Counted from the first letter of the stretch, positions 3,693-23,411 are shown. The stretch: DNA of 53,389 nucleotides from Candidatus Eiseniibacteriota bacterium (GCA_043809585.1 JBDROZ010000050.1:1-53389); one strand, 5' to 3'. Translations and numbers: made by a program. Notes: generated by a model not told the origin, from the letters alone.

Positions 3693-5492
3693 CTACCCGC
3701 CGAGCAATCCGCCCTTCTTGTAGATCGCCATCTGGACGCCGGAGAAGGTCCCTTCGATCGTCTCGCCGGAGGGGAGGGTGACCCTGCCCGTCTCGAGGTC
3801 GACTTCGATGGTCTCGCCGGTCCGAAGGCCGTGATCGATGAGCTTGGCGGTCACGATCGGGAAGCCCTTGTTGATGGCGTTCCGTTCGTAGATGGCGCCG
3901 AAGGATTCGCCGACGATGCAGGAGACGCCGAGGCTCTCGAAGCAGTCGACCGCCTGCTGCCGGGAGGAACCGGCGCCGAAGTTCTTGGGCACGACGACGA
4001 TGTCCCCCGGCTTCACCTTCTTCGCGAAGTCCTCGTACCCCTCGAGGTTGTCGAAGGTGTACCGCCCCATCTCGGCGATGTCGGTGATGGCGAGATAGCG
4101 GTTGTGGTAGATCATGTCCGTGTCGATGTTGTCCCGGTCGATCACCCATGCCCGCCCCTGGAAACGGGTCGGCCGGCCCATGGTCGGCGCGGCGCTCTTC
4201 CCGGCGGCCGGGGAAGGGGCCCCTCCTATGGCAAAGAGAACGGGCTTCTCCGGGATCCCGCGGGGCGTCGCGATGACGCCCGCCACGGCGCTCGCGGCCA
4301 CCACCTCCGGCGAAGCGAGATACACTTCCCCTTTCCCCTGCTTCCCCGCGAAGTTCCGGTTCCCCGTGCTGATCGTCACCTCGCCGGGGCCGTTCTGTCC
4401 GATCTGCCCCGCCGCGCACCCGGCGCACCCCGCGTTCCCCACGAGGGCGCCCGCCTTCTTGAACGTCTCGATGATCCCCTCGCGGAGACACCGGTTCCAG
4501 ACGGCGTCCGTGGCGGGGACGATCTTGAGCACCACGCCGGGCGCCACCCGCCGCCCCTCCAGGATCGAGGCGGCCGCCGCGAGGTCTTCGTACCGGCCGT
4601 TCGTGCACGATCCGATGAAGGCGGATCCGATCTTCGTCCCCGCCACGGCCTCCACCGGGGCCACGTCCTCCGGATGCCCCGGCCGGGCGATCTGGGGAGC
4701 GAGACCATCCACGTCGATCTCCATGGTCCGCTCGTAGAGGGCGTCCTCGTCGGCGAACACCGGTGCGACCCGCCTTCCCGCCGCCTCGGAGCAGAAGTCG
4801 AGGACGTTCCGGTTCGGGGGGAAGAGGGCGATGATGCCCGCCATCTCGGTCGCCATGGAGGCGACGGTCACCCGCCCCGCGAGGTCGAGCCGGTCGACCG
4901 CATCGCCGTAGAACTCGGCGGCGTATCCGAGCAGGGTGTTGGCGCCGAGCTTCCCGAGCATCGCGAGCACGAGATCTTTCGGCGTCGCACCCGGTCCGGG
5001 CGTTCCGGTGATCACGATCTTGATGGTGGGCGGCACCTTGAACCAGACCCGGCCGAAGGCCCACGCGTGGGCGATGTCCACGTCCCCCATCCCCTGGCCG
5101 AAGGCGCCGACGGCGCCGAGAATGTTCGCGTGGGAGTCGGTGGAGACCAGGGTCGACCCGGGAACGGCAAGTCCCTCGTCGATGGCGATGTGGGTTCCGA
5201 TCCCCGCGTCGATGTCGTACACCCGGATCCCGTGCTCCCGCGCGAAGACCCGGCAGATCTGCTGGTTCGTCGCGTATTTCTGATCCGACCCGCCCGGATT
5301 GCAGTCGAAGGTGAAAAACGTCTTCGACGGATCGTCGACGCCGAGTCCGTTCTCGCGGATGTTCTTCACCACGTTCGCCCCGCCGAAATCGCGCGCGACC
5401 CGGACGTCGATCGCGATGTCCACGATCTCGCCGGGCGAGACTTCCTTCCCCGCATGGGCGCCGAGGATCTTCTCGATGATGGTCTTCCCCAT
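3693..5492 (-). CDS. Aconitase-family dehydratase; fused large and small subunits of the 3-isopropylmalate dehydratase/homoaconitase type
   Basis: MGKTIIEKIL start; DSH, IGSCTNG, CAGC, STGNRNF.G, YLASP in the large part; after a linker, DNIDTD, NFGAGSSRQ and ESFGAIYERNAIN.G of the LeuD swivel domain. Confidence 0.92.
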   Translation of the reverse strand: MGKTIIEKILGAHAGKEVSPGEIVDIAIDVRVARDFGGANVVKNIRENGLGVDDPSKTFFTFDCNPGGSDQKYATNQQICRVFAREHGIRVYDIDAGIGTHIAIDEGLAVPGSTLVSTDSHANILGAVGAFGQGMGDVDIAHAWAFGRVWFKVPPTIKIVITGTPGPGATPKDLVLAMLGKLGANTLLGYAAEFYGDAVDRLDLAGRVTVASMATEMAGIIALFPPNRNVLDFCSEAAGRRVAPVFADEDALYERTMEIDVDGLAPQIARPGHPEDVAPVEAVAGTKIGSAFIGSCTNGRYEDLAAAASILEGRRVAPGVVLKIVPATDAVWNRCLREGIIETFKKAGALVGNAGCAGCAAGQIGQNGPGEVTISTGNRNFAGKQGKGEVYLASPEVVAASAVAGVIATPRGIPEKPVLFAIGGAPSPAAGKSAAPTMGRPTRFQGRAWVIDRDNIDTDMIYHNRYLAITDIAEMGRYTFDNLEGYEDFAKKVKPGDIVVVPKNFGAGSSRQQAVDCFESLGVSCIVGESFGAIYERNAINKGFPIVTAKLIDHGLRTGETIEVDLETGRVTLPSGETIEGTFSGVQMAIYKKGGLLGG

Positions 5493-5573
5493 GACGTTCT
5501 CCTGCTTCCTGGGCCCGGCGGGCCGGATGCCTCGAAACCGCTGCAAATCGGGATGATGCCGGGGTACGGGAGA

Positions 5574-5602
5574 ATTGTATTCGCGGCCCCCGTTGAAGTC
5601 CA
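5574..5602 (-). promoter_or_regulatory. Sigma70-type promoter for the LeuCD-like gene
   Basis: TGGACT-17 nt-TACAAT on the minus strand, about 80 nt upstream of the start codon. Confidence 0.55.
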
Positions 5603-5666
5603 CGGCGATCGGGCCAGGGCGGGCCTTCCGGCTGATCCCCGCCTGCGGAGGACGGTTCTCCGGCGG

Positions 5667-5695
5667 TTCATTCCCCTCTCGGTTCGTGATAGAAT
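5667..5695 (+). promoter_or_regulatory. Sigma70-type promoter for the beta-helix gene
   Basis: TTCATT-17 nt-TAGAAT with extended -10 TG (TGATAGAAT). Confidence 0.55.
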
Positions 5696-5747
5696 GAAAA
5701 AGTCTTCCCCCCACCGGTTTCCGGAGGACCCTCACGAAAGGCGCGCC

Positions 5748-7250
5748 GTGAACCTCGTGCAGACCGTGATTCTCCTGTCGCTCGCTTCGCTCTTCTTCGC
5801 CGCCGGGGCCGCCGCCGGCGTCATCCGGGTTCCGGACGACCAGCCGACCATCGCGGCGGGCCTCGCCGCCGCCGGAGCGGGGGACACGGTGCTCGTCGCC
5901 CCCGGAGTCTACCAAGAGAATCTCCTCTGGCCCTCCACCGGGGGGATCCGGCTGATCGGGGAAGGGGGTCCGGCGGAGACGATCGTCGACGGACGAGGTC
6001 TCGGGTCGGTCATCGAAATCGCGGGCGGCGCCGACTCGACCACCCTGATCAAGGGTCTCACCCTCCAGAACGGTCGCGCCTACGGGGGGTGACCCCGCTG
6101 TGACGGCGGCGGGGTCCGCTGCCTCGAATCATCGCCGGTCTTCGAAGAGACCTTCTTCCTCGACAACGAAGCGGAGATCCTGGGGGGCGGGTTCTACGGC
6201 CGCTCCTCCTCGGCGATTCTCCGGCGTTGCGAATTCCGGCGGAACGAAGCGGGGTCCGGGGGCGGGGTCTACTTCACCGGGCTCTCCTCGCCCGTCATTC
6301 AGTCGTGCGTCGTCGACTCGAACACCGTCGCCGGATGGGGGGGAGGGATCACCCTCGAGGTCGAGGCGGCGGCCCTGGTCGAGAGCTGCACGGTTCGATG
6401 GAACGAGGCGAACGAGGGGGGCGGGATCTTCATCGCCACCGCGGAGCCCGTGATCCGGGAGACCCGTTTCGCGGGGAACCGGGCGGAGAGTGGGGGCGGG
6501 GCGAGGATCCTGGTCGTCGAAGGACCGAGCTTCGTGGGCTGCGCCTTCGCCGGGAACGAAGCGACCACCTACGGGGGAGGGCTGAAGGTCGACTTCTCGA
6601 CCCTCTTCTTCGAGGATTGCCGGATCGATTCGAACTCCGCTTCTTCCGGCGGCGGCGCGCTCTGGATGCAGGAGTCGGACGCCGACCTCGAGCGGTGTCT
6701 CGTCCGGAAAAACTCCTCCGCGAACGGGGCGGGTGGGGTCCGCGTCTCCTCTTCTACGCTGCTCATCCGGGACGGCGAGATCGCGGGGAACGGACGGGGC
6801 CTGGTCGTCGGCTCTCCGGGCCCCGTGGACGCGGACGCCCGCGGGAACTGGTGGGGTCACCCGAGCGGGCCGTACCACCCGGCGCTGAATCCCGGGGGTC
6901 TCGGCGACGAGGTGAGCGATCACGTCCTGTTCGACCCGTGGGAGACGCCCACGGCGGTCGGCGCGGGCGAGGGTCTCTTCGCCCCCGGCCTCGTTGCGGG
7001 CAGCCCCGTCCGTTCGGGATCGGCGATCGCCTTCTCTCTCGGGGGGAGGAGGGCCGTCGCGCTCCGGGTCTATGACGTCGCCGGCCGGCTCGTCAGGACC
7101 CTCCTCGACGGGGAGGCCGGCCCGGGCGTGACCCGTCTCCTCTGGGACGGACGGGATGACCGGGGATCGTCCGTCGGAAGCGGCGTCTATCTCGTGCGCC
7201 TCGCGACGCCCGATGGGGCGGTCACGAAGCGGGTCGTGGTGGTCCGTTGA
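5748..7250 (+). CDS. Secreted right-handed beta-helix protein with C-terminal FlgD-Ig/T9SS-like domain; in-frame TGA at 6090-6092 (candidate selenocysteine, UxxC)
   Basis: GTG start after GAAAGG; signal peptide; IRVPDDQPTI...GDTVLVAPGVY beta-helix cap. Reading through TGA gives PRCDGGGVRC...NEA..GGG repeats in frame with ORF 6450-7250. C-terminus VYDVAGRLVR...WDGRD...SGVYLVRL. Confidence 0.85.
6105..6123 (+). promoter_or_regulatory. Candidate bacterial SECIS hairpin
   Basis: GGCGGCGG-GGT-CCGCTGCC: 8-bp stem starting 12 nt after the TGA, with a G-first GGU loop 20 nt downstream of the TGA. Confidence 0.6.
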
Positions 7251-7272
7251 CGGGGGATCCGCGCCTCATCCG

Positions 7273-7302
7273 TTGACGCTCCCCCCCTCCGGGGCCTACC
7301 TT
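7273..7302 (+). promoter_or_regulatory. Sigma70-type promoter for rnr (probably leaderless)
   Basis: TTGACG-18 nt-TACCTT; the ATG begins 7 nt after the -10 box and there is no Shine-Dalgarno. Confidence 0.45.
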
Positions 7303-7308
7303 CTTCTC

Positions 7309-9519
7309 ATGACACCAGACAAGAAACGCATTCTCGATTTCGTCCGGCGGGAGTCGGACCATCCCATGAAGCCGAAAGAGATCGCCCTCGCCCTCGGGAT
7401 CCGGTCGTCCGGTTACGCCCGCTTCCGGCGGGCCCTCGAGGAGCTGATCGCGGAGGGCGGGCTCGTCCGGTTGAAACGGGGGGGCATCGGACCCGCGGAG
7501 CAGCTCGGCCTTCTCGTCGGCAAGGTCTCCGTCAATCGTCTTGGGACCGGATTCCTCGAGCGGGAGGGGGAGGAGGACCTCCGCATCCCCGCCCACGATC
7601 TCGGCACCGCCCTCGACGGCGACCAGGTGCTGGCCCGCCGAACCGGACACCGGGGGGGACGGGAGGAGGGGGCGGTCGTCCGGGTCCGGGAGAGGGCGCC
7701 GCGGAACATCGTCGGCGTCGTCTCCCGGGAGGGGGGCATCACCCACGTCCGGCCCGACAATCCGCGCATCCACCGGGACCTCTTCATTCCCGAGAATGAA
7801 AGGGGGGACGCCGAGGAGGGCCAGAAGGTGGTGGCGGCCCTCGTCCGCTGGGACGATCCCCACCGCAATCCGGAAGGGAAGATCACCGAAGTCCTCGGCG
7901 ACGTGGGCGAGCCGGGGGTCGACATGCGGGCGATCCTGAAGGAGCACGGGCTCCCCGAGGTGTTTCCGGGCGATGTCCTCTCGGAGGCGGAGCGGGCGGC
8001 GGCGGTCGACACGTCGGAGCAGCAGGCCCGCCGCCTCGACCTGACGGGAGAGTGCGTCTACACGATCGACCCCGCCGACGCGAAGGACCACGACGACGCG
8101 ATCTCCATCGAGCGGATCGAGGGGGGCTACCGTCTCGGCGTCCACATCGCCGACGTCTCCCATTACGTCGCTCCGGGAACCGCTCTCGATCGGGAGGCCT
8201 TCCACCGGGGGAACTCGGTCTACCTTCCGGGCATGGTGGTTCCCATGATCCCCGAGTCCCTCTCGAACGATGTCTGTTCGCTCCGCCCGAACCGGCGGCG
8301 CCTCGCCCACTCGGTCTTCATCGACTACGACCGGACGGGCAAGGCTCTGAAGTGGCGCTTCGAGGACACGGTGATCCGCTCGAAGGCGAAGCTCGCCTAC
8401 GAGGAAGTGCAGGAGTATTTCGACTCGGGCGTCCCGAAGGGGGGAATCGAGCGGGTCGCGGAGAGCCTCGACCTCGCCCGGGAACTCGCCCGGCTCCTCG
8501 CCCGGCGGCGCGCCGAGCAGGGCTCCCTCGACTTCGACCTCCCCGAGGCGAAGGTGATCCTGAACAAGAAGGGGGAGGTGATCGAACTCGGCCATCGGGT
8601 CCGGCTCGAGGCGCACCGCCTCATCGAGGAGTTCATGCTCGCCGCGAACCGGGCGGTCGCCTACGAGGTCGCCCGGAAAGGCCAGCCCTTCCTCTACCGG
8701 GTCCACGACAAGCCGGACATGGAGAGCATCGAGGCCTTCTCCCACATGATGCACCTCCTCGGTTATCCCTTCCCGGTGTCGAAGAACATGAAGCCCGCCC
8801 ACTTCTCCCGCTTCCTCGAGAGGATCAAGAACGCGCCCGAGTCGGACTTCATCCACGAGCTGATGCTCCGGACCATGCAGAAGGCGGTCTACCAGCGGGA
8901 GAACATCGGCCACTTCGGCCTCGCCTTCCGGCACTACACTCATTTCACGTCGCCGATCCGCCGCTACCCCGATCTCCTCGTCCACCGGCTCCTCCGGGAG
9001 CTGCGGGGCCGCGCCTCCTTCTCCCCCTCCTTCGCCCAGCGGATCACCCGGACCATCGACGCCGTGGGGACCCACTGCAGCGCCACGGAGCGGGCCGCCG
9101 AGGCGGCGGAGCGGCAGGCGGTGAAGGTGAAGCAGGTCCAGTACATGGCGAAGCACGTGGGGGAGGAGTTCGACGGGGTCATCTCGGGGACCACGCCCCA
9201 CGGTTTTTTCGTCCGTCTCGCGGGGCTCGGAGTGGACGGCATGGTCCGGCTCTCGTCGATCGATGACGACTACTACCGGTATGACGAGGACCGGAAGAAG
9301 CTCGTCGGCCGGCACGGCGGCCGTGCCTTCCGCATGGGCGACCCGATCCGGGTCGGCGTGGCCCGGGCGGACACCCTTCGAGGAGAGATCGATCTCTATC
9401 TTCCGGAGGAGGAGTCGAAAGTGGGGAAGGGCCGGAAGGGGAAGTCAAAGGCGAGGGCGAAGGTAAGGGATATCACCCCTCCGAAGAACATCGGCCGGGG
9501 CCGGAGAAGGAGGTCGTGA
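7309..9519 (+). CDS. rnr: Ribonuclease R
   Basis: TIDP.DAKD.DDA catalytic motif, GVHIADVS, EEFMLAAN, YTHFTSPIRRYPDL, S1 domain and basic C-terminal tail. Confidence 0.97.
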   Translation: MTPDKKRILDFVRRESDHPMKPKEIALALGIRSSGYARFRRALEELIAEGGLVRLKRGGIGPAEQLGLLVGKVSVNRLGTGFLEREGEEDLRIPAHDLGTALDGDQVLARRTGHRGGREEGAVVRVRERAPRNIVGVVSREGGITHVRPDNPRIHRDLFIPENERGDAEEGQKVVAALVRWDDPHRNPEGKITEVLGDVGEPGVDMRAILKEHGLPEVFPGDVLSEAERAAAVDTSEQQARRLDLTGECVYTIDPADAKDHDDAISIERIEGGYRLGVHIADVSHYVAPGTALDREAFHRGNSVYLPGMVVPMIPESLSNDVCSLRPNRRRLAHSVFIDYDRTGKALKWRFEDTVIRSKAKLAYEEVQEYFDSGVPKGGIERVAESLDLARELARLLARRRAEQGSLDFDLPEAKVILNKKGEVIELGHRVRLEAHRLIEEFMLAANRAVAYEVARKGQPFLYRVHDKPDMESIEAFSHMMHLLGYPFPVSKNMKPAHFSRFLERIKNAPESDFIHELMLRTMQKAVYQRENIGHFGLAFRHYTHFTSPIRRYPDLLVHRLLRELRGRASFSPSFAQRITRTIDAVGTHCSATERAAEAAERQAVKVKQVQYMAKHVGEEFDGVISGTTPHGFFVRLAGLGVDGMVRLSSIDDDYYRYDEDRKKLVGRHGGRAFRMGDPIRVGVARADTLRGEIDLYLPEEESKVGKGRKGKSKARAKVRDITPPKNIGRGRRRRS

Positions 9520-13149: not shown

Positions 13150-15639
13150 CTAACGGATGAGGATCATCTTCTTCGTGTGCGTCTCCCCGCCGGCGGTCAG
13201 CCTATAGAAATAGACGCCCGAGGCGCCGGGGTCGCCGGTCGAAGACCGTCCGTCCCAGAGGACGTCGTGTTCGCCCGCGTCGAGCATCCCCCGCTGGAGT
13301 GTGCGGACCAGGCGCCCCGAGATGTCGTAGACCGAGAGATCGACCTCCTGCCTCTCGGGGAGGGCGAAGGAGATCGACGTCGTCGGGTTGAAGGGATTCG
13401 GCCGGTTGTTCCGGAGGACCAGCCGGGGGGGGGCGTCTCCGCCGTCGGAGCCGGACCCCCCGCCACCCTCGACGCCCGTATACACCGAGGCGTACCAGAT
13501 CGTGAGGAACGGGCGCCGCGCCGCCTCGTACCACTCCTTGCTGTAGTACTCGGCGACGCAATTCGTCCCCTCGGGGGGAGAGCCGCTTCGAAGCACGAGC
13601 GTGACGTTCCCGTCCACCGTCCCCCGGACGTCGCCGGTCACGTCCCAGGTGTACGGCCCGGGCGAGGTCATCCGCTGGCGATCCGACGCGTACGGCTTGA
13701 ACATGGTCGGGGCGTTGTTCCACGTGATCGTGTTCTCGTCCCAGACGTCCACTCCTTCCTCGTAGACGTCGATGTAGTAGGACGACCCGCAGCTGACGCT
13801 CATCAGCTCCACGGTCAGGCCGGCCGCGACAACGTCGGTTCCCGGAGGCGTTTCCGGTCCGATGTAGAACTTCAGGTAGCTCCGGGCGATCGAACCCGGG
13901 CCCGAGTAGCCCCCCACGACGAGCCAGTTCGGGTTGGCGGCGCCGAAGGGCGTGTTGGGATTGAAGGACTCGACGAAGGCGTCGTCCGCCGGATCGATGG
14001 TGACGCGCGTGAGTTCCCTGGGAATGCAGATCTGCTCGGGCGCCCAGCCCGACTCCATGAATCCGGCGTCGATCGCCTTCACGCTCCAGTAATAGGTCTG
14101 CACCGGAAGCCCGGAGAGCGTGACCTCCTTCGACTGGCCCGCGTTTCCCATGAGGGGCGTCGAGTAGGTGCCGGAGACGACATCGTCCGCGCCCGGGGAA
14201 GTGCCGACCCGGAGTAGGTAGTAGAGGCCGGCGGATTGGGTCTCCGCGTCGGAGGCGCCGTCCCATGAGAAGACGACATCGTCGGGCCAGCCGAACGGGG
14301 AGACATACTGATGGGACTCGAATGTCGTCGGCGCCGTGGGCGCCGTATTGGCCGCGCCGCCCGTCTTCTCGTAGAGCCTCGCGTATTTCGGCGTCCAATT
14401 CGCGCCGGTGACGAAGAAATCCAGATCGCCGTCCCGATCGGCGTCGGCGAAGCTGACGGAACCTTCTCTCACTCCCGGGAAACCGAAGCCGCACGGAGCG
14501 AAACCACCGTTGTCGTTCTCGAGGACGTCCGTCATGAGCGATCCGCCGTCGTACCCGCAGAACGCGACGTCGAGGTCGCCGTCGTTGTCGTAGTCCCCCC
14601 AGGCGCAGGAGCTCCGGTAGATCTGCCACGGCTCGGCGATAGAATCGAGCACGCCGCCTCCGTCATTGGCGTAGATCAACGCGTGCATCGGACCGCCGAC
14701 GCCGGACTCGCCGGTGACCACCAGGTCGAGGTCGCCGTCGTTGTCGCAGTCCCCCCAGGCGGCGTCGGAGAAGACGAAACCGGGGAGGCCGTGGCTCCCG
14801 TCGTTCGTCAGGCCGAGAAGCGGGTCGTTCTCGTAGAAGATGGTGGTCCGGGTCGATCCGTTCGCGCCGGTCACGAGCAGGTCGAGATAACCATCCCCGT
14901 TCCAGTCGGCCCAGTCCGCCGACCCGCTGTGGAGCCCGCCGAACGCCGTGTGGAAGACGAGAGTGCCGGGCGGGTCGTTTTCGTAGAGAACCGCCGTTGC
15001 GGCCGTTCCGTCATGGCCCTGGAGGTAGAGATCGAGATCGCCGTCCCGGTCGAAGTCGCCCCACGCGAGTGAGGCATTGGCGACCCGAGCCAGGACCTGG
15101 GTCCCGTCGTGCGACAGGTTTCCGGAACCGTCATTCTCGAAGACCATCGCGACACGGCCCGTGTCGGCCGTTCCCGCCATGGCGAGGTCGAGATCTCCGT
15201 CGAGGTCGTAATCGCCCCAGGAGACGCAACCGCTTCCCGCACCGTCGATCCCGACGAGCTCCTGCCGGAGGAGGAGGGAGTCGATCCGGTTCTCGTAGGT
15301 GCGGGTCACTCTCCCCGTGTCCGTTTCGCCGGAGACGATCAGGTCGAGATCCCCGTCGCCGTCGAAATCCCCCCAGGCCGCGTCGCTGTCGATGACGCCG
15401 GTCAGGCTCTGCCGCGCCTCGTAGGCGTCCGGCAACCGGGTCGCGTCCCGCGCGCCCCGCACCTCCATGATCTCGGCCCGGTCGGCCGCTCCGGGGACCG
15501 GGGTCAGGCCGAGAGCGAGGAGGAGCGAAGGGACCACCCCGAAGATCCGGTGCATCCGGGAATGGATCCCGTGACCGCGGGGAAGGCTCCGGTTCACGGT
15601 CGAAGGAGCGCTGGGTCCGGCGAGTTTCTTTCGGTCCAT
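13150..15639 (-). CDS. Secreted FG-GAP/VCBS repeat protein with FN3-like, DNRLRE-like and FlgD-Ig/T9SS-like domains
   Basis: About 7 WGD.D.DGDLDL repeats; YYWSVKAID; DDAFV...RSYLKF...W.E.TITWNNAP; NRPNPFNPTT...SGVYFYRL. RBS AAAGGAGG. Confidence 0.88.
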   Translation of the reverse strand: MDRKKLAGPSAPSTVNRSLPRGHGIHSRMHRIFGVVPSLLLALGLTPVPGAADRAEIMEVRGARDATRLPDAYEARQSLTGVIDSDAAWGDFDGDGDLDLIVSGETDTGRVTRTYENRIDSLLLRQELVGIDGAGSGCVSWGDYDLDGDLDLAMAGTADTGRVAMVFENDGSGNLSHDGTQVLARVANASLAWGDFDRDGDLDLYLQGHDGTAATAVLYENDPPGTLVFHTAFGGLHSGSADWADWNGDGYLDLLVTGANGSTRTTIFYENDPLLGLTNDGSHGLPGFVFSDAAWGDCDNDGDLDLVVTGESGVGGPMHALIYANDGGGVLDSIAEPWQIYRSSCAWGDYDNDGDLDVAFCGYDGGSLMTDVLENDNGGFAPCGFGFPGVREGSVSFADADRDGDLDFFVTGANWTPKYARLYEKTGGAANTAPTAPTTFESHQYVSPFGWPDDVVFSWDGASDAETQSAGLYYLLRVGTSPGADDVVSGTYSTPLMGNAGQSKEVTLSGLPVQTYYWSVKAIDAGFMESGWAPEQICIPRELTRVTIDPADDAFVESFNPNTPFGAANPNWLVVGGYSGPGSIARSYLKFYIGPETPPGTDVVAAGLTVELMSVSCGSSYYIDVYEEGVDVWDENTITWNNAPTMFKPYASDRQRMTSPGPYTWDVTGDVRGTVDGNVTLVLRSGSPPEGTNCVAEYYSKEWYEAARRPFLTIWYASVYTGVEGGGGSGSDGGDAPPRLVLRNNRPNPFNPTTSISFALPERQEVDLSVYDISGRLVRTLQRGMLDAGEHDVLWDGRSSTGDPGASGVYFYRLTAGGETHTKKMILIR

Positions 15640-21170: not shown

Positions 21171-23411
21171 CTACCGGAGCCGGATCGTCTTGATCGTCGA
21201 CTCCCTCCCGTCTTCGACGAGGCGGATGAAGTAGACGCCCGCCGCGGCCGGCGCGCCCTCTTTGTTCGTGCCGTCCCACGATCTTTCGTGGAAGCCGGCC
21301 GGGAGCTTCCCGGAGACGATGGAGCGGACCATCCGCCCGGAGGCGTCGAACACCTCGAGGCGGACCTCCTTCGACCGGTCGAGGCCGAACGCGATCCGGC
21401 TGTCCCGGACGAACGGGTTGGGCGCGGCGCGAAACCCTCGCGTTGACGAGGCCGGCGTCGATTCGGCGGCGGGAGGGACGGCGATGGTCCCCCTCGGGGC
21501 GCGCCAGACGCCGCCCCCCGCGAGCCCGGCGAAGAAGTTCTCGTCATCCGATTCCAGGGCGTAGACGGCGAGGAACTCCCTCAGGCCGCCGCTCTCGTTC
21601 ACCCATGTGGATCCGGTGTCGGTCGAGGCGTACAGGGCGCCCCAACTGCCCGCGAGAATCCGGTCGCCCGCGTCGCAGAGAGAGAAGACGGCGGGACCGT
21701 CGAGCCCCGAAGAGTCCCACTCGGCGTTCGCCTCGTTCCAGCGGCGGACCCCTTTCGACTCGAGGCCGAGGAAGAGCGTGCCGCTCCCGGCGACGAAGCA
21801 CCGCATGTTGAACTCGGGCAGGCCCGTGTTCATGGGGGCCCACTCGCTCTCTCCGTCCGGGAGGACGTACACACCTTCGCCCCAGAGGGCGGCGTAGAGG
21901 GATGTGCCCAGGCGCTCGACGCCCATCACGTTCGCGGGCGGCAGGCCGCTCCCGACCGGGTTCCAGTTCTCGCCGCCGTCGCCGGAGACCTGCACGCCGT
22001 TGCCATAGGTGCCGGCGTAGAGGACCGGGGGGGAGGGGGCGAGGGCGAACACGCCGTTTCCCTGGAGCCCGGCCGACTCCCATGAGGCCCCCTGGTCCGT
22101 CGTCTTCCAAACACCGTTCCACGTCCCCGCGTAGACCGTGCTCCCGCCGCCGGCCATGCGGTGGACGAAGACCTCGCCGAGCCCCTCGACCGAGAGGGTC
22201 CACGTCTCCCCCTGATCGGATGAGACCCACACGCCGCCGCCGTACATTCCGGCGTAGAGGTTCCCCCCGTCCGAGACGATGGACGTGACCACCGGGGCCG
22301 TCATTCCCCCGGAGGCTCGGGACCAGGTGTCCGACAGCGGATCGAAGGCGAAGACGCCCCCGCCGAAGGTCCCGGCGTAGGGGGAGAGCCCCCGGCTCGT
22401 CATGGAGCGGATGTCCCAGTTCCAGAGCCCGTCGTTCACCATGTTCCAGTAGGCCGCCGAGGGATCCCACCGGTAGGCGCCGCCTCCCATGAGCCCCGCA
22501 TAGAGCGTCTGGTCCACTTCGACCACCACGTCCACGTTGTCGTCGTAGAGGCCGTCGTTCAGGGGGACCCACGCGCTGTCCGCGCAGTCGAGGCGGAACA
22601 CACCCCCTTCGTGGGTCGCCAGAAAGAAGGCGCCGTCCGTGGCCGAGAAGGACTGCTGGCCGAAGTCCTGGTAGAGCCCCTGGTTCCAGAGGCTCCAGGC
22701 GAGGTCGTTCGGGTCGAGCCGGTAGATCCCCGCGTCGAGCCGCGCGTAGAGAACGGTCCCGCGGAGCCCGAGAGCGAGGACCCAGGCGGAGGGGAGCCCG
22801 TCGTTCACGAGGGTCCAGGAGGCGCCGCCGTCGTCGGTACGGGCCACCCCGAAGTTACCCCCGGCGTAGACCCGATCGCCGAACCGGCAGGCGGCGAGCG
22901 CCATGATGATCGGGTACCCTTCGTCCGGAATCGTCCCCGTGGTGTACCAGGTCACGGCGTCGTCGTCGGAGCGGAAGACGCCGCCCCCCCAGGTGCCGGC
23001 GTAGACCGCGCCCGGCCCGGCGGCGAGGCTCTGGACCGTGAAGTTGCAGCAGGGCCAGGTCAGCCCGTCGTCCGTCGTCTCCCACGAGGCGCCGCCGTCG
23101 GCGGAGCGCCAGAGCCCGCCGTTCTCCGTGCCGGCGAGGAGGGTTCCCGATGGGGTCGCGACGAGGCAGAAGATGGCGGCCCCCTCGGGGCCTCCGGTCC
23201 ACTCCCAATCAATGGAGCGCCCGGTCTTCGGCGCCCCTGCCGGGGTGATCCGGTTCGGAGCATCGAGGGCAGTGAACGGCGGTGCCGCCGTGAAGGAAAC
23301 GGGCGGGGCGTCCGGAGGGGAGCCCGGCGGGAACAGGCCGGCGGGGGAAGGCGCAGGGAAGGGGAAGAGGAACAGAAGGAGCGCGGAGAAGACGGGGGTC
23401 CAGGAGCGCAT
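21171..23411 (-). CDS. Secreted BNR/Asp-box beta-propeller protein with C-terminal FlgD-Ig/T9SS-like domain
   Basis: RBS GAGGAGG; signal peptide; many YAGT.GGGV..S.D.G.SW...GL repeats; APNPF...WDGT...AGVYFIRL. Confidence 0.88.
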   Translation of the reverse strand: MRSWTPVFSALLLFLFPFPAPSPAGLFPPGSPPDAPPVSFTAAPPFTALDAPNRITPAGAPKTGRSIDWEWTGGPEGAAIFCLVATPSGTLLAGTENGGLWRSADGGASWETTDDGLTWPCCNFTVQSLAAGPGAVYAGTWGGGVFRSDDDAVTWYTTGTIPDEGYPIIMALAACRFGDRVYAGGNFGVARTDDGGASWTLVNDGLPSAWVLALGLRGTVLYARLDAGIYRLDPNDLAWSLWNQGLYQDFGQQSFSATDGAFFLATHEGGVFRLDCADSAWVPLNDGLYDDNVDVVVEVDQTLYAGLMGGGAYRWDPSAAYWNMVNDGLWNWDIRSMTSRGLSPYAGTFGGGVFAFDPLSDTWSRASGGMTAPVVTSIVSDGGNLYAGMYGGGVWVSSDQGETWTLSVEGLGEVFVHRMAGGGSTVYAGTWNGVWKTTDQGASWESAGLQGNGVFALAPSPPVLYAGTYGNGVQVSGDGGENWNPVGSGLPPANVMGVERLGTSLYAALWGEGVYVLPDGESEWAPMNTGLPEFNMRCFVAGSGTLFLGLESKGVRRWNEANAEWDSSGLDGPAVFSLCDAGDRILAGSWGALYASTDTGSTWVNESGGLREFLAVYALESDDENFFAGLAGGGVWRAPRGTIAVPPAAESTPASSTRGFRAAPNPFVRDSRIAFGLDRSKEVRLEVFDASGRMVRSIVSGKLPAGFHERSWDGTNKEGAPAAAGVYFIRLVEDGRESTIKTIRLR

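Follow-up and report, generated by a model that had tools for sequence, protein, structure and literature searches.

Here we describe a gene on the plus strand, at positions 5694-7250 of a stretch of 53,389 nucleotides (nt) from Candidatus Eiseniibacteriota bacterium (GCA_043809585.1 JBDROZ010000050.1:1-53389; this whole stretch, with a G+C content of 67%, is called the window below), whose reading frame is interrupted by a single UGA. It is almost certainly a genuine selenoprotein gene that annotation has split, and it founds a small family that is not catalogued in the libraries and the literature searched. Judging from the comparison of homologous sequences, we consider it highly probable that the UGA at codon 133 is decoded as selenocysteine (Sec, U) by SelB at a selenocysteine insertion sequence (SECIS), and that the product is an exported beta-helix protein. 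The recoding mechanism is a standard one; it is the fold, the location and the apparent absence of cysteine forms that are unusual.

A single frame runs from ATG 5694, or from GTG 5748 lying in frame 18 codons downstream, to the TGA stop at 7248-7250 (518 codons plus the stop counted from the ATG), and its sole interruption is TGA 6090-6092, which is codon 133 counted from the ATG (U133) and codon 115 counted from the GTG. An earlier reading made without any database search (the sequence-only reading) had claimed one frame broken only by this TGA, with a U-P-R-C motif, and the translation bears it out: the read-through peptide is ...LTLQNGRAYGG-U-P-R-C-DGGGVRCLESSP..., with the motif itself at 6090-6101. 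Under translation table 11 the open reading frame falls into two pieces of the same frame, one ending at 6092 and the other beginning at 6450; between these positions there is no in-frame start codon, the next one, at 6450, being 120 codons beyond the TGA, and the fragments in the databases can therefore not represent two distinct genes. Of the two possible starts we favour ATG 5694, because residues upstream of GTG 5748 (F9, D12-P13-H14-E15 and R17-A18) are kept in an orthologue from a related genome, G008; the GTG is the gene caller's start for the N-terminal fragment, and the database entry P0188 begins there. In databases the family is represented only by fragments, namely P0188, P0066 and P0048. 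The TGA was also looked for in reads, as the sequence-only reading had proposed: a 243-nt Logan contig (depth 2.7) assembled from the public DNA run X1, possibly from the same sample as the window, covers 6018-6260 with no differences, which places the TGA in a second read assembly. No RNA run is listed as holding the stretch, and three DNA runs of one study hold parts of it only.

The in-frame TGA at the aligned codon, together with a cysteine at +3, is kept in all 15 of 15 independent orthologues, which come from metagenome-assembled genomes (MAGs) of Eisenbacteria, Fermentibacteria and Krumholzibacteriota and from metagenome contigs, so that within the orthologous group the proposed comparison of homologues at this site returned the same codon throughout. 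Pairwise protein identity within the family is 32-72% with a median of 43%, and because of such values the orthologues cannot be taken for copies of one contaminant. Among 41 related genomes four hits contain stops, and only the one on contig C46 of G008, a genome of the same taxonomic family and another genus, has TGA at the aligned codon, reading ...NGFAEGG-U-P-W-C-SGAG; it is the only close orthologue in the nine genomes of the order (E = 8e-32 versus 7e-24 for the best paralogue). The other stop-containing hits (G031:C24, G005:C44 and G011:C27) have TGA or TAG elsewhere, unrelated to the site, and were set aside. In the window's own genome, G000, there are 164 matches to the protein, most of them to the shared C-terminal domain, and no paralogue has a stop at the site. 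A scan of metagenomes with N-terminal peptide patterns that leave the site out gave 80 loci, the best three of which (L078, L076 and L077; E = 1e-54 to 3e-43) read ...EG[TQ]-U-P-W-C-SG[GA]GVRCL, and the remaining 77 have a gap or unrelated residues there. L076 and L077 code for the same protein, which aligns to window residues 41-518 with its own sorting domain at the end, and L076 is 43% identical to the window protein over 483 residues.

A further search, over one genome per GTDB species, used the DNA pattern TGN CCN YGN TGY NNN GGN GSN GGN GTN CGN TGY, whose first codon is open to Sec, Cys or Trp. It gave 26 hits. TGA is the first codon in every one of the 11 that stand in the family context ...TTTVIRGFTIRNGHAEGx-U-PWCSGGGVRCLxSSP...; the other 15 are out-of-frame occurrences in G+C-rich DNA, with TGA as the first codon in six, TGT in three, TGC in one and TGG in five. 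The hosts of the pattern hits are MAGs of Eisenbacteria (3), Fermentibacteria, Krumholzibacteriota and Effluviviaceae, and unclassified bacteria. Thirteen copies have a complete 3' end, and in 12 of these no further stop occurs for 308-412 codons beyond the TGA, with similarity along the whole length; two further copies run past the end of their locus. The best-conserved part of the 14-member alignment is the very block around the site, G-x-U-P-W-C-S-G-G-G-V-R-C-L-x-S-S-P, with the columns G131, U133, P134, C136, G138, G140, V141, R142, C143 and L144 invariant. U-P-W-C is present in 13 of the 14 aligned members, and it is the window protein that is the odd one out, with U-P-R-C-D.

The remaining copy with a complete 3' end is that of G008 (L034; G008:C46:13815-14216, minus strand), with 45 codons after the TGA and 180 residues in total. 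It retains signal peptide, cap, TGA and P-W-C, after which the sequence jumps in frame to the final 37 residues of the sorting domain. This is probably a decayed copy or an assembly artefact; the MAG is 82% complete and 6% contaminated.

Just 3' of the UGA lies a SECIS-type hairpin (6105-6123, plus strand), with an 8-bp stem GGCGGCGG/CCGCUGCC (3' arm CCGCTGCC in the DNA) and the apical loop GGU (GGT). A hairpin GGCGGCGG-GGU-CCGCUGCC had been claimed 12 nt past the UGA, and this is where it begins; its loop, with G first, begins 20 nt after the UGA and so falls within the range of 16-37 nt that the review PMC10778597 gives for the UGA-to-loop distance of bacterial SECIS elements. From 14 sequences RNAalifold derives precisely this structure as the consensus, with six of its eight pairs kept in 14 of 14 sequences and two in 13 of 14.

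At the identities found in this family synonymous sites are expected to be scrambled, and in the hairpin they are frozen. Within its codons (+5 to +10) four of the five conserved columns with at least three-fold degeneracy use a single codon and the fifth does so in 13 of 14 sequences, versus none of 55 comparable columns outside the hairpin, where the most uniform column has 79% of one codon (Fisher's exact test over the 14 sequences, p = 1.0e-5). Of the 14 sequences, 13 share the six codons GGC GGC GGG GUC CGC UGC exactly, and the flanking Pro, Ser and Leu codons vary; glycine columns elsewhere in the same genes use two to four codons each, versus one in the hairpin. The frozen codons cannot be an artefact of the search, because third positions were N in the search pattern. 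The hairpin, whose conservation in homologues had been proposed as a check, is thus kept in the family down to synonymous positions, a pattern which indicates that it is under selection at the RNA level. A scan of 5600-7400 against Rfam gave just two matches, both at chance level (E 1.4 and 2.1).

The organism possesses the machinery that such a gene would need. All four of selA, selB, selC and selD, which it had been suggested to look for, are present in the window's genome (97.5% complete): selA matches with 445 bits, selB with 359 bits against a cut-off of 242, selC is there as a tRNA-SeC with anticodon TCA, and selD (L010; G000:C19:30755-31678) contains one in-frame TGA, found only at the canonical Sec position ...AAAG-U-AAKHS.... 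Across the family selA is present in 13 of 13 tested host genomes, versus 2 of 14 control genomes. Both G000 and G008 (G008:C277:452-1375) encode a SelD that is a selenoprotein too, with TGA at the G-U-x-x-K site; the hairpin of the G000 selD gene, with a long stem and a CAG loop about 30 nt past the UGA, does not resemble the compact one with the GGU loop in the beta-helix gene.

Several observations weigh against decoding as selenocysteine and should be taken into account. Eleven of the 15 members were found by way of a pattern that demands the motif, and for this reason orthologues lacking it would have been missed. Most accepted selenoprotein families have Cys-form homologues, and no Cys-form orthologue was found here, neither among the 11 family hits of the TGN pattern (0/11) nor among the closest full-length proteins. 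Cys-Pro occurs at the aligned site only in the distant paralogues P0023 and P0028 (about 40% identity), and the paralogues P0014, P0017 and L050 have Trp-Pro there. The G008 copy lacks both the helix body and the hairpin's 3' half, and a search of this 82% complete genome did not find selB. Taken on its own, the window's fold of 6085-6150 is within chance (z = -1.72, with 7 of 200 shuffles equally stable), so that the hairpin owes its significance to the comparison of orthologues and not to the window alone. Nor does covariation lend support: the covariation term is 0.14 kcal/mol with no compensatory pairs, as nothing in the hairpin varies. With only three sequences RNAalifold preferred another hairpin, containing the GA of the UGA and showing one compensatory pair; we rejected it, for 14 sequences give the hairpin at 6105-6123, the pairs of the alternative involve third positions that vary freely, and its loop would lie 9-10 nt after the UGA, nearer than the published range.

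Could the UGA be read through without SelB, by a near-cognate tRNA (Trp, Cys or Arg), or act as a regulatory stop, with the hairpin slowing the ribosome or having some other role in the RNA? UGA followed by C is a weak and leaky stop context, and C follows the UGA in 15 of 15 copies; the Trp-Pro of the three paralogues and the lack of Cys-form orthologues among the searched sequences would also fit such read-through. We nevertheless regard it as improbable, since the hairpin matches bacterial SECIS elements in position and form and has its synonymous sites frozen, the invariant Cys at +3 gives the U-x-x-C spacing typical of Sec sites, and selA accompanies the gene in every tested host; moreover, if tryptophan were meant, TGG is one step away and yet occurs in none of the 15 orthologues. 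That the gene is a pseudogene, made by a nonsense mutation, with the hairpin a by-product of Gly-rich codons, could draw on the insignificance of the hairpin in a single sequence, on the large internal deletion of the G008 copy and on the variability of the loop in distant paralogues, where it has W, H, S, L or a gap. Other residues without a conserved hairpin, which the sequence-only reading had named as the mark of a simple nonsense mutation, were found in those distant paralogues only and not in the orthologous group. A nonsense mutation can hardly account for the same TGA in 15 independent and well diverged sequences, for the intact hundreds of codons and the conserved domains that follow it, for the TGA block being the best-conserved part of the protein, or for glycine columns reduced to one codon in the hairpin, and we hold this explanation to be very unlikely indeed. 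Just as little credence is due to a sequencing or assembly error or to a general reassignment of TGA (code 4 or 25). The Logan contig is shallow and maybe from the same sample, which leaves some room for an error; TGA stands at the site, however, in assemblies from many unrelated projects. As to reassignment, TGA is also the final stop of the window gene and of 7 of the 12 others with a complete 3' end (8 of 13 in all), which argues that it keeps its meaning as a stop, and in selD it is restricted to the canonical Sec position.

Selenocysteine decoding therefore remains our reading of this codon, and the protein that carries it is a beta-helix protein with the features of a secreted one. Residues 1-42 (5694-5819) form a probable Sec-pathway signal peptide, read from the sequence, with RR in the n-region and the hydrophobic stretch LVQTVILLSLASLFFAAGAAA; in the AlphaFold model this region contains a helix at 13-32 at low predicted local distance difference test (pLDDT) values, and the first beta-strand starts from residue 43. 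A right-handed parallel beta-helix with ladders of Asn and Cys follows (5820-6818), matching Pfam Beta_helix PF13229 with 67.2 bits against a cut-off of 25.9 and the Chlam_PMP repeat of the Chlamydia PMP proteins with 33.9 bits. It is closed by a conserved block, DADARxNWWGxxSGPYHPxxNPxGxGDEVxDxVxFxPW (6828-6941), which is found in the members reaching this region except L158 and L177. At the end there is a C-terminal FlgD-Ig-like domain of the type A sorting kind of the type IX secretion system (T9SS), at 7026-7241, which matches FlgD_ig PF13860 with 30.3 bits against a cut-off of 27 and, marginally, the NCBIfam T9SS Por_Secre_tail model TIGR04183 with 24.8 bits against a cut-off of 23 (residues 445-516), and for which Foldseek finds the C-terminal domain of PorU (6za2). 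As these scores exceed their cut-offs, the beta-helix and the C-terminal sorting domain, both claimed before from the sequence, can be accepted as real.

The AlphaFold2 model (mean pLDDT 83.6, predicted template modelling score 0.73) shows regular three-strand beta-helix coils from residue 43 to about 375, where most 10-residue blocks have a mean pLDDT above 90, and a C-terminal beta-sandwich domain. At the U-P-R-C loop, which precedes the first GGG turn, pLDDT dips to 72 (block 131-140), and a helical turn at 134-136 lies between strands 123-125 and 141-144. Foldseek gave 68 matches in the PDB at E <= 0.001, and those listed are mostly beta-helix enzymes and tailspikes (polysaccharide lyase, epimerase); the best TM-score among the matches listed, normalised by target length, is 0.54, for the A-module of AlgE4. 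The search for T9SS genes in G000 covered the PorU-type sortases, of which the genome contains two genes (551 and 520 bits, above the cut-off of 420). Most of the 164 matches in this genome are to the C-terminal FlgD-Ig/T9SS-like domain, two of them in other genes of the window (13153-13398 and 21207-21425, minus strand), and this points to a very large sorted secretome. Within the family we see three kinds of C-terminal module, namely the FlgD-Ig tail, a short W-x-x-I-K-x-x-Y-R directly after the helix, and another domain of about 150 residues, as appears when L161, L169, L173 and L178 are compared with L158 and L177, the latter two having an unrelated domain that ends in ...LPP. Since the C-terminal modules differ, the helix with its Sec loop is the constant part of the family.

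We propose, on inference from these features, the following course of events. The hairpin within the coding sequence would recruit SelB carrying Sec-tRNA(Sec), which would outcompete release factor 2 at codon 133. Given the signal peptide and the T9SS-type sorting domain, the product would then leave the cytoplasm and most likely be displayed at the surface of the cell, with the U-P-x-C loop predicted to protrude before the first GGG turn of the helix. There the loop would most likely cycle between selenol/thiol and selenenyl-sulfide, or else bind a soft metal. The selenenyl-sulfide couple is our first guess because U-x-x-C with its proline resembles the C-P-x-C redox sites, and a metal site is the second guess because the closest full-length homologue free of Sec, L029 (G004:C17), has H-P-D-H-H in place of U-P-x-C-x (window residues 129-140), which hints at a ligand-binding loop in the wider family. 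When selenium is scarce, translation would stop at codon 133 and leave a fragment of 132 residues without the sorting domain.

Other searches around the family touched the same subjects. A profile search of 1.84 billion representatives returned mostly giant multi-repeat proteins among its best 150, the family being represented there only by C-terminal fragments of L076 and of the window protein, and a word-based search with the 132-residue N-terminal fragment returned nothing beyond the fragment of the window itself and a short protein unrelated to it. Another gene of G000 with the same C-terminal domain (G000:C71:10723-10983) has one in-frame TGA inside the match, and may either encode a further hidden selenoprotein or be broken. 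A beta-helix paralogue at G000:C65:1080-2018 has one in-frame TAG, and it is probably broken, or else consists of two adjacent genes. No conserved partner was found in the gene neighbourhoods of 10 loci. A gene of the LPG_synthase_TM family (PF03706, lysylphosphatidylglycerol synthase) is nearby in three of the ten (L174:2179-3381, L176:5385-6389 and L178:515-1642), and L174 and L176 are maybe close relatives, so that the three cases are maybe not independent. The ORFs that flank the selenoprotein gene in the window look by eye like a fused aconitase-family dehydratase similar to LeuC/LeuD (3693-5500, minus strand) and an exoribonuclease similar to RNase R (7310-9519, plus strand).

The claim that the protein belongs to no described class of selenoproteins has stood up in the sources covered. 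Pfam and NCBIfam contain no model for the family, and in the literature searched no paper connects selenoproteins to these phyla, to proteins of the beta-helix fold or to T9SS cargo. The main text of BSepDB contains no reference to helix, pectin, secretion, T9SS, NosD or outer membrane, its supplement being a place where more may be listed, and a 2022 review does not mention secreted, extracellular or signal-peptide selenoproteins. Nor is the family among the nine new ones in the body of the deep-Sep paper (PMC12013277), whose supplementary tables might list such a family.

It may further be suggested, as a tentative and rather doubtful extension, that this is a Sec-only family whose members are beta-helix proteins sorted by T9SS to the outside of the cell and occurring only in Eisenbacteria, Fermentibacteria, Krumholzibacteriota and their relatives, with Sec acting extracellularly in a U-P-W-C loop on a scaffold other than thioredoxin. 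If it were true, the protein could catalyse redox reactions at the surface or capture soft metals or chalcogens, the supply of its full-length form would depend on selenium through the UGA, and the biological use of selenium would be extended to a new structural and cellular setting. The bacterial selenoproteins known so far are for the most part redox enzymes of the cytoplasm or periplasm, many of them thioredoxin-like and most with Cys twins. The family stands apart from them by a predicted Sec in the loop of a secreted and surface-sorted beta-helix, by the lack of a Cys twin among the sequences searched, and by a strictly conserved SECIS, which would be among the most strictly conserved short RNA elements that can be expected in a coding region. 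Because gene callers split such genes, annotation as it now stands does not show the family in several candidate phyla. For further study the family provides a compact SECIS of 19 nt, from organisms without cultured members, and a concrete target for the question why selenium should be spent on an extracellular protein.

When compared with known systems, the protein resembles in its predicted export the TonB-dependent receptor reported as a selenoprotein candidate in deep-Sep (PMC12013277, Table 3) and the 'Omp28-related selenoprotein' NF045500: in each case Sec would leave the cytoplasm of an anaerobic or uncultured bacterium. The folds differ, and NF045500 has no match to the window protein at E <= 0.1. 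For all nine of its new families deep-Sep reports Cys homologues, unlike the orthologous group described here, for which none was found among the sequences searched. In architecture the closest likeness is to secreted beta-helix/PMP-repeat proteins (PF13229, PF02415, PF13860 and TIGR04183), with which it shares the cap VPxDxxTIxxAxxxAxxGDTxLVAPGxY, the GGG/N ladders and the sorting domain. There are dozens of such paralogues in G000; unlike our protein, the beta-helix paralogues have a gap or unrelated residues at the site (H-P-D-H-H in L029, W-P in P0014), no TGA and no hairpin. With the NosD families only the general cap and helix are common, the scores of 24.9 bits for TIGR04247 and 20 bits for PF05048 being below the cut-offs of 300 and 23.6.

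Around the site itself the likeness is to thioredoxin-fold selenoproteins with U-x-x-C or C-x-x-U, where Sec and Cys likewise stand two residues apart, with a proline after the first chalcogen and a short helical turn; DsbA and glutaredoxin have C-P-x-C active sites, and by analogy the U-P-x-C loop may work like those of the thioredoxin fold. The family is nevertheless not one of the thioredoxin-fold families, because no thioredoxin-like domain of Pfam or NCBIfam was found at E <= 0.1 and it is a beta-helix loop that carries the motif. In its decoding, finally, the gene is comparable to the bacterial genes that use SelB and SECIS, of which E. coli fdhF is the prototype. The fdhF element has a bulged U and a GU loop. 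The present hairpin is short (8 bp with a 3-nt loop) and without a bulged base, and its family and fold are unrelated to formate dehydrogenase; what it has in common with those systems is the in-frame UGA, the stem-loop within the ORF just 3' of it, the G in the first position of the loop, and a host genome with selA, selB, selC and selD.

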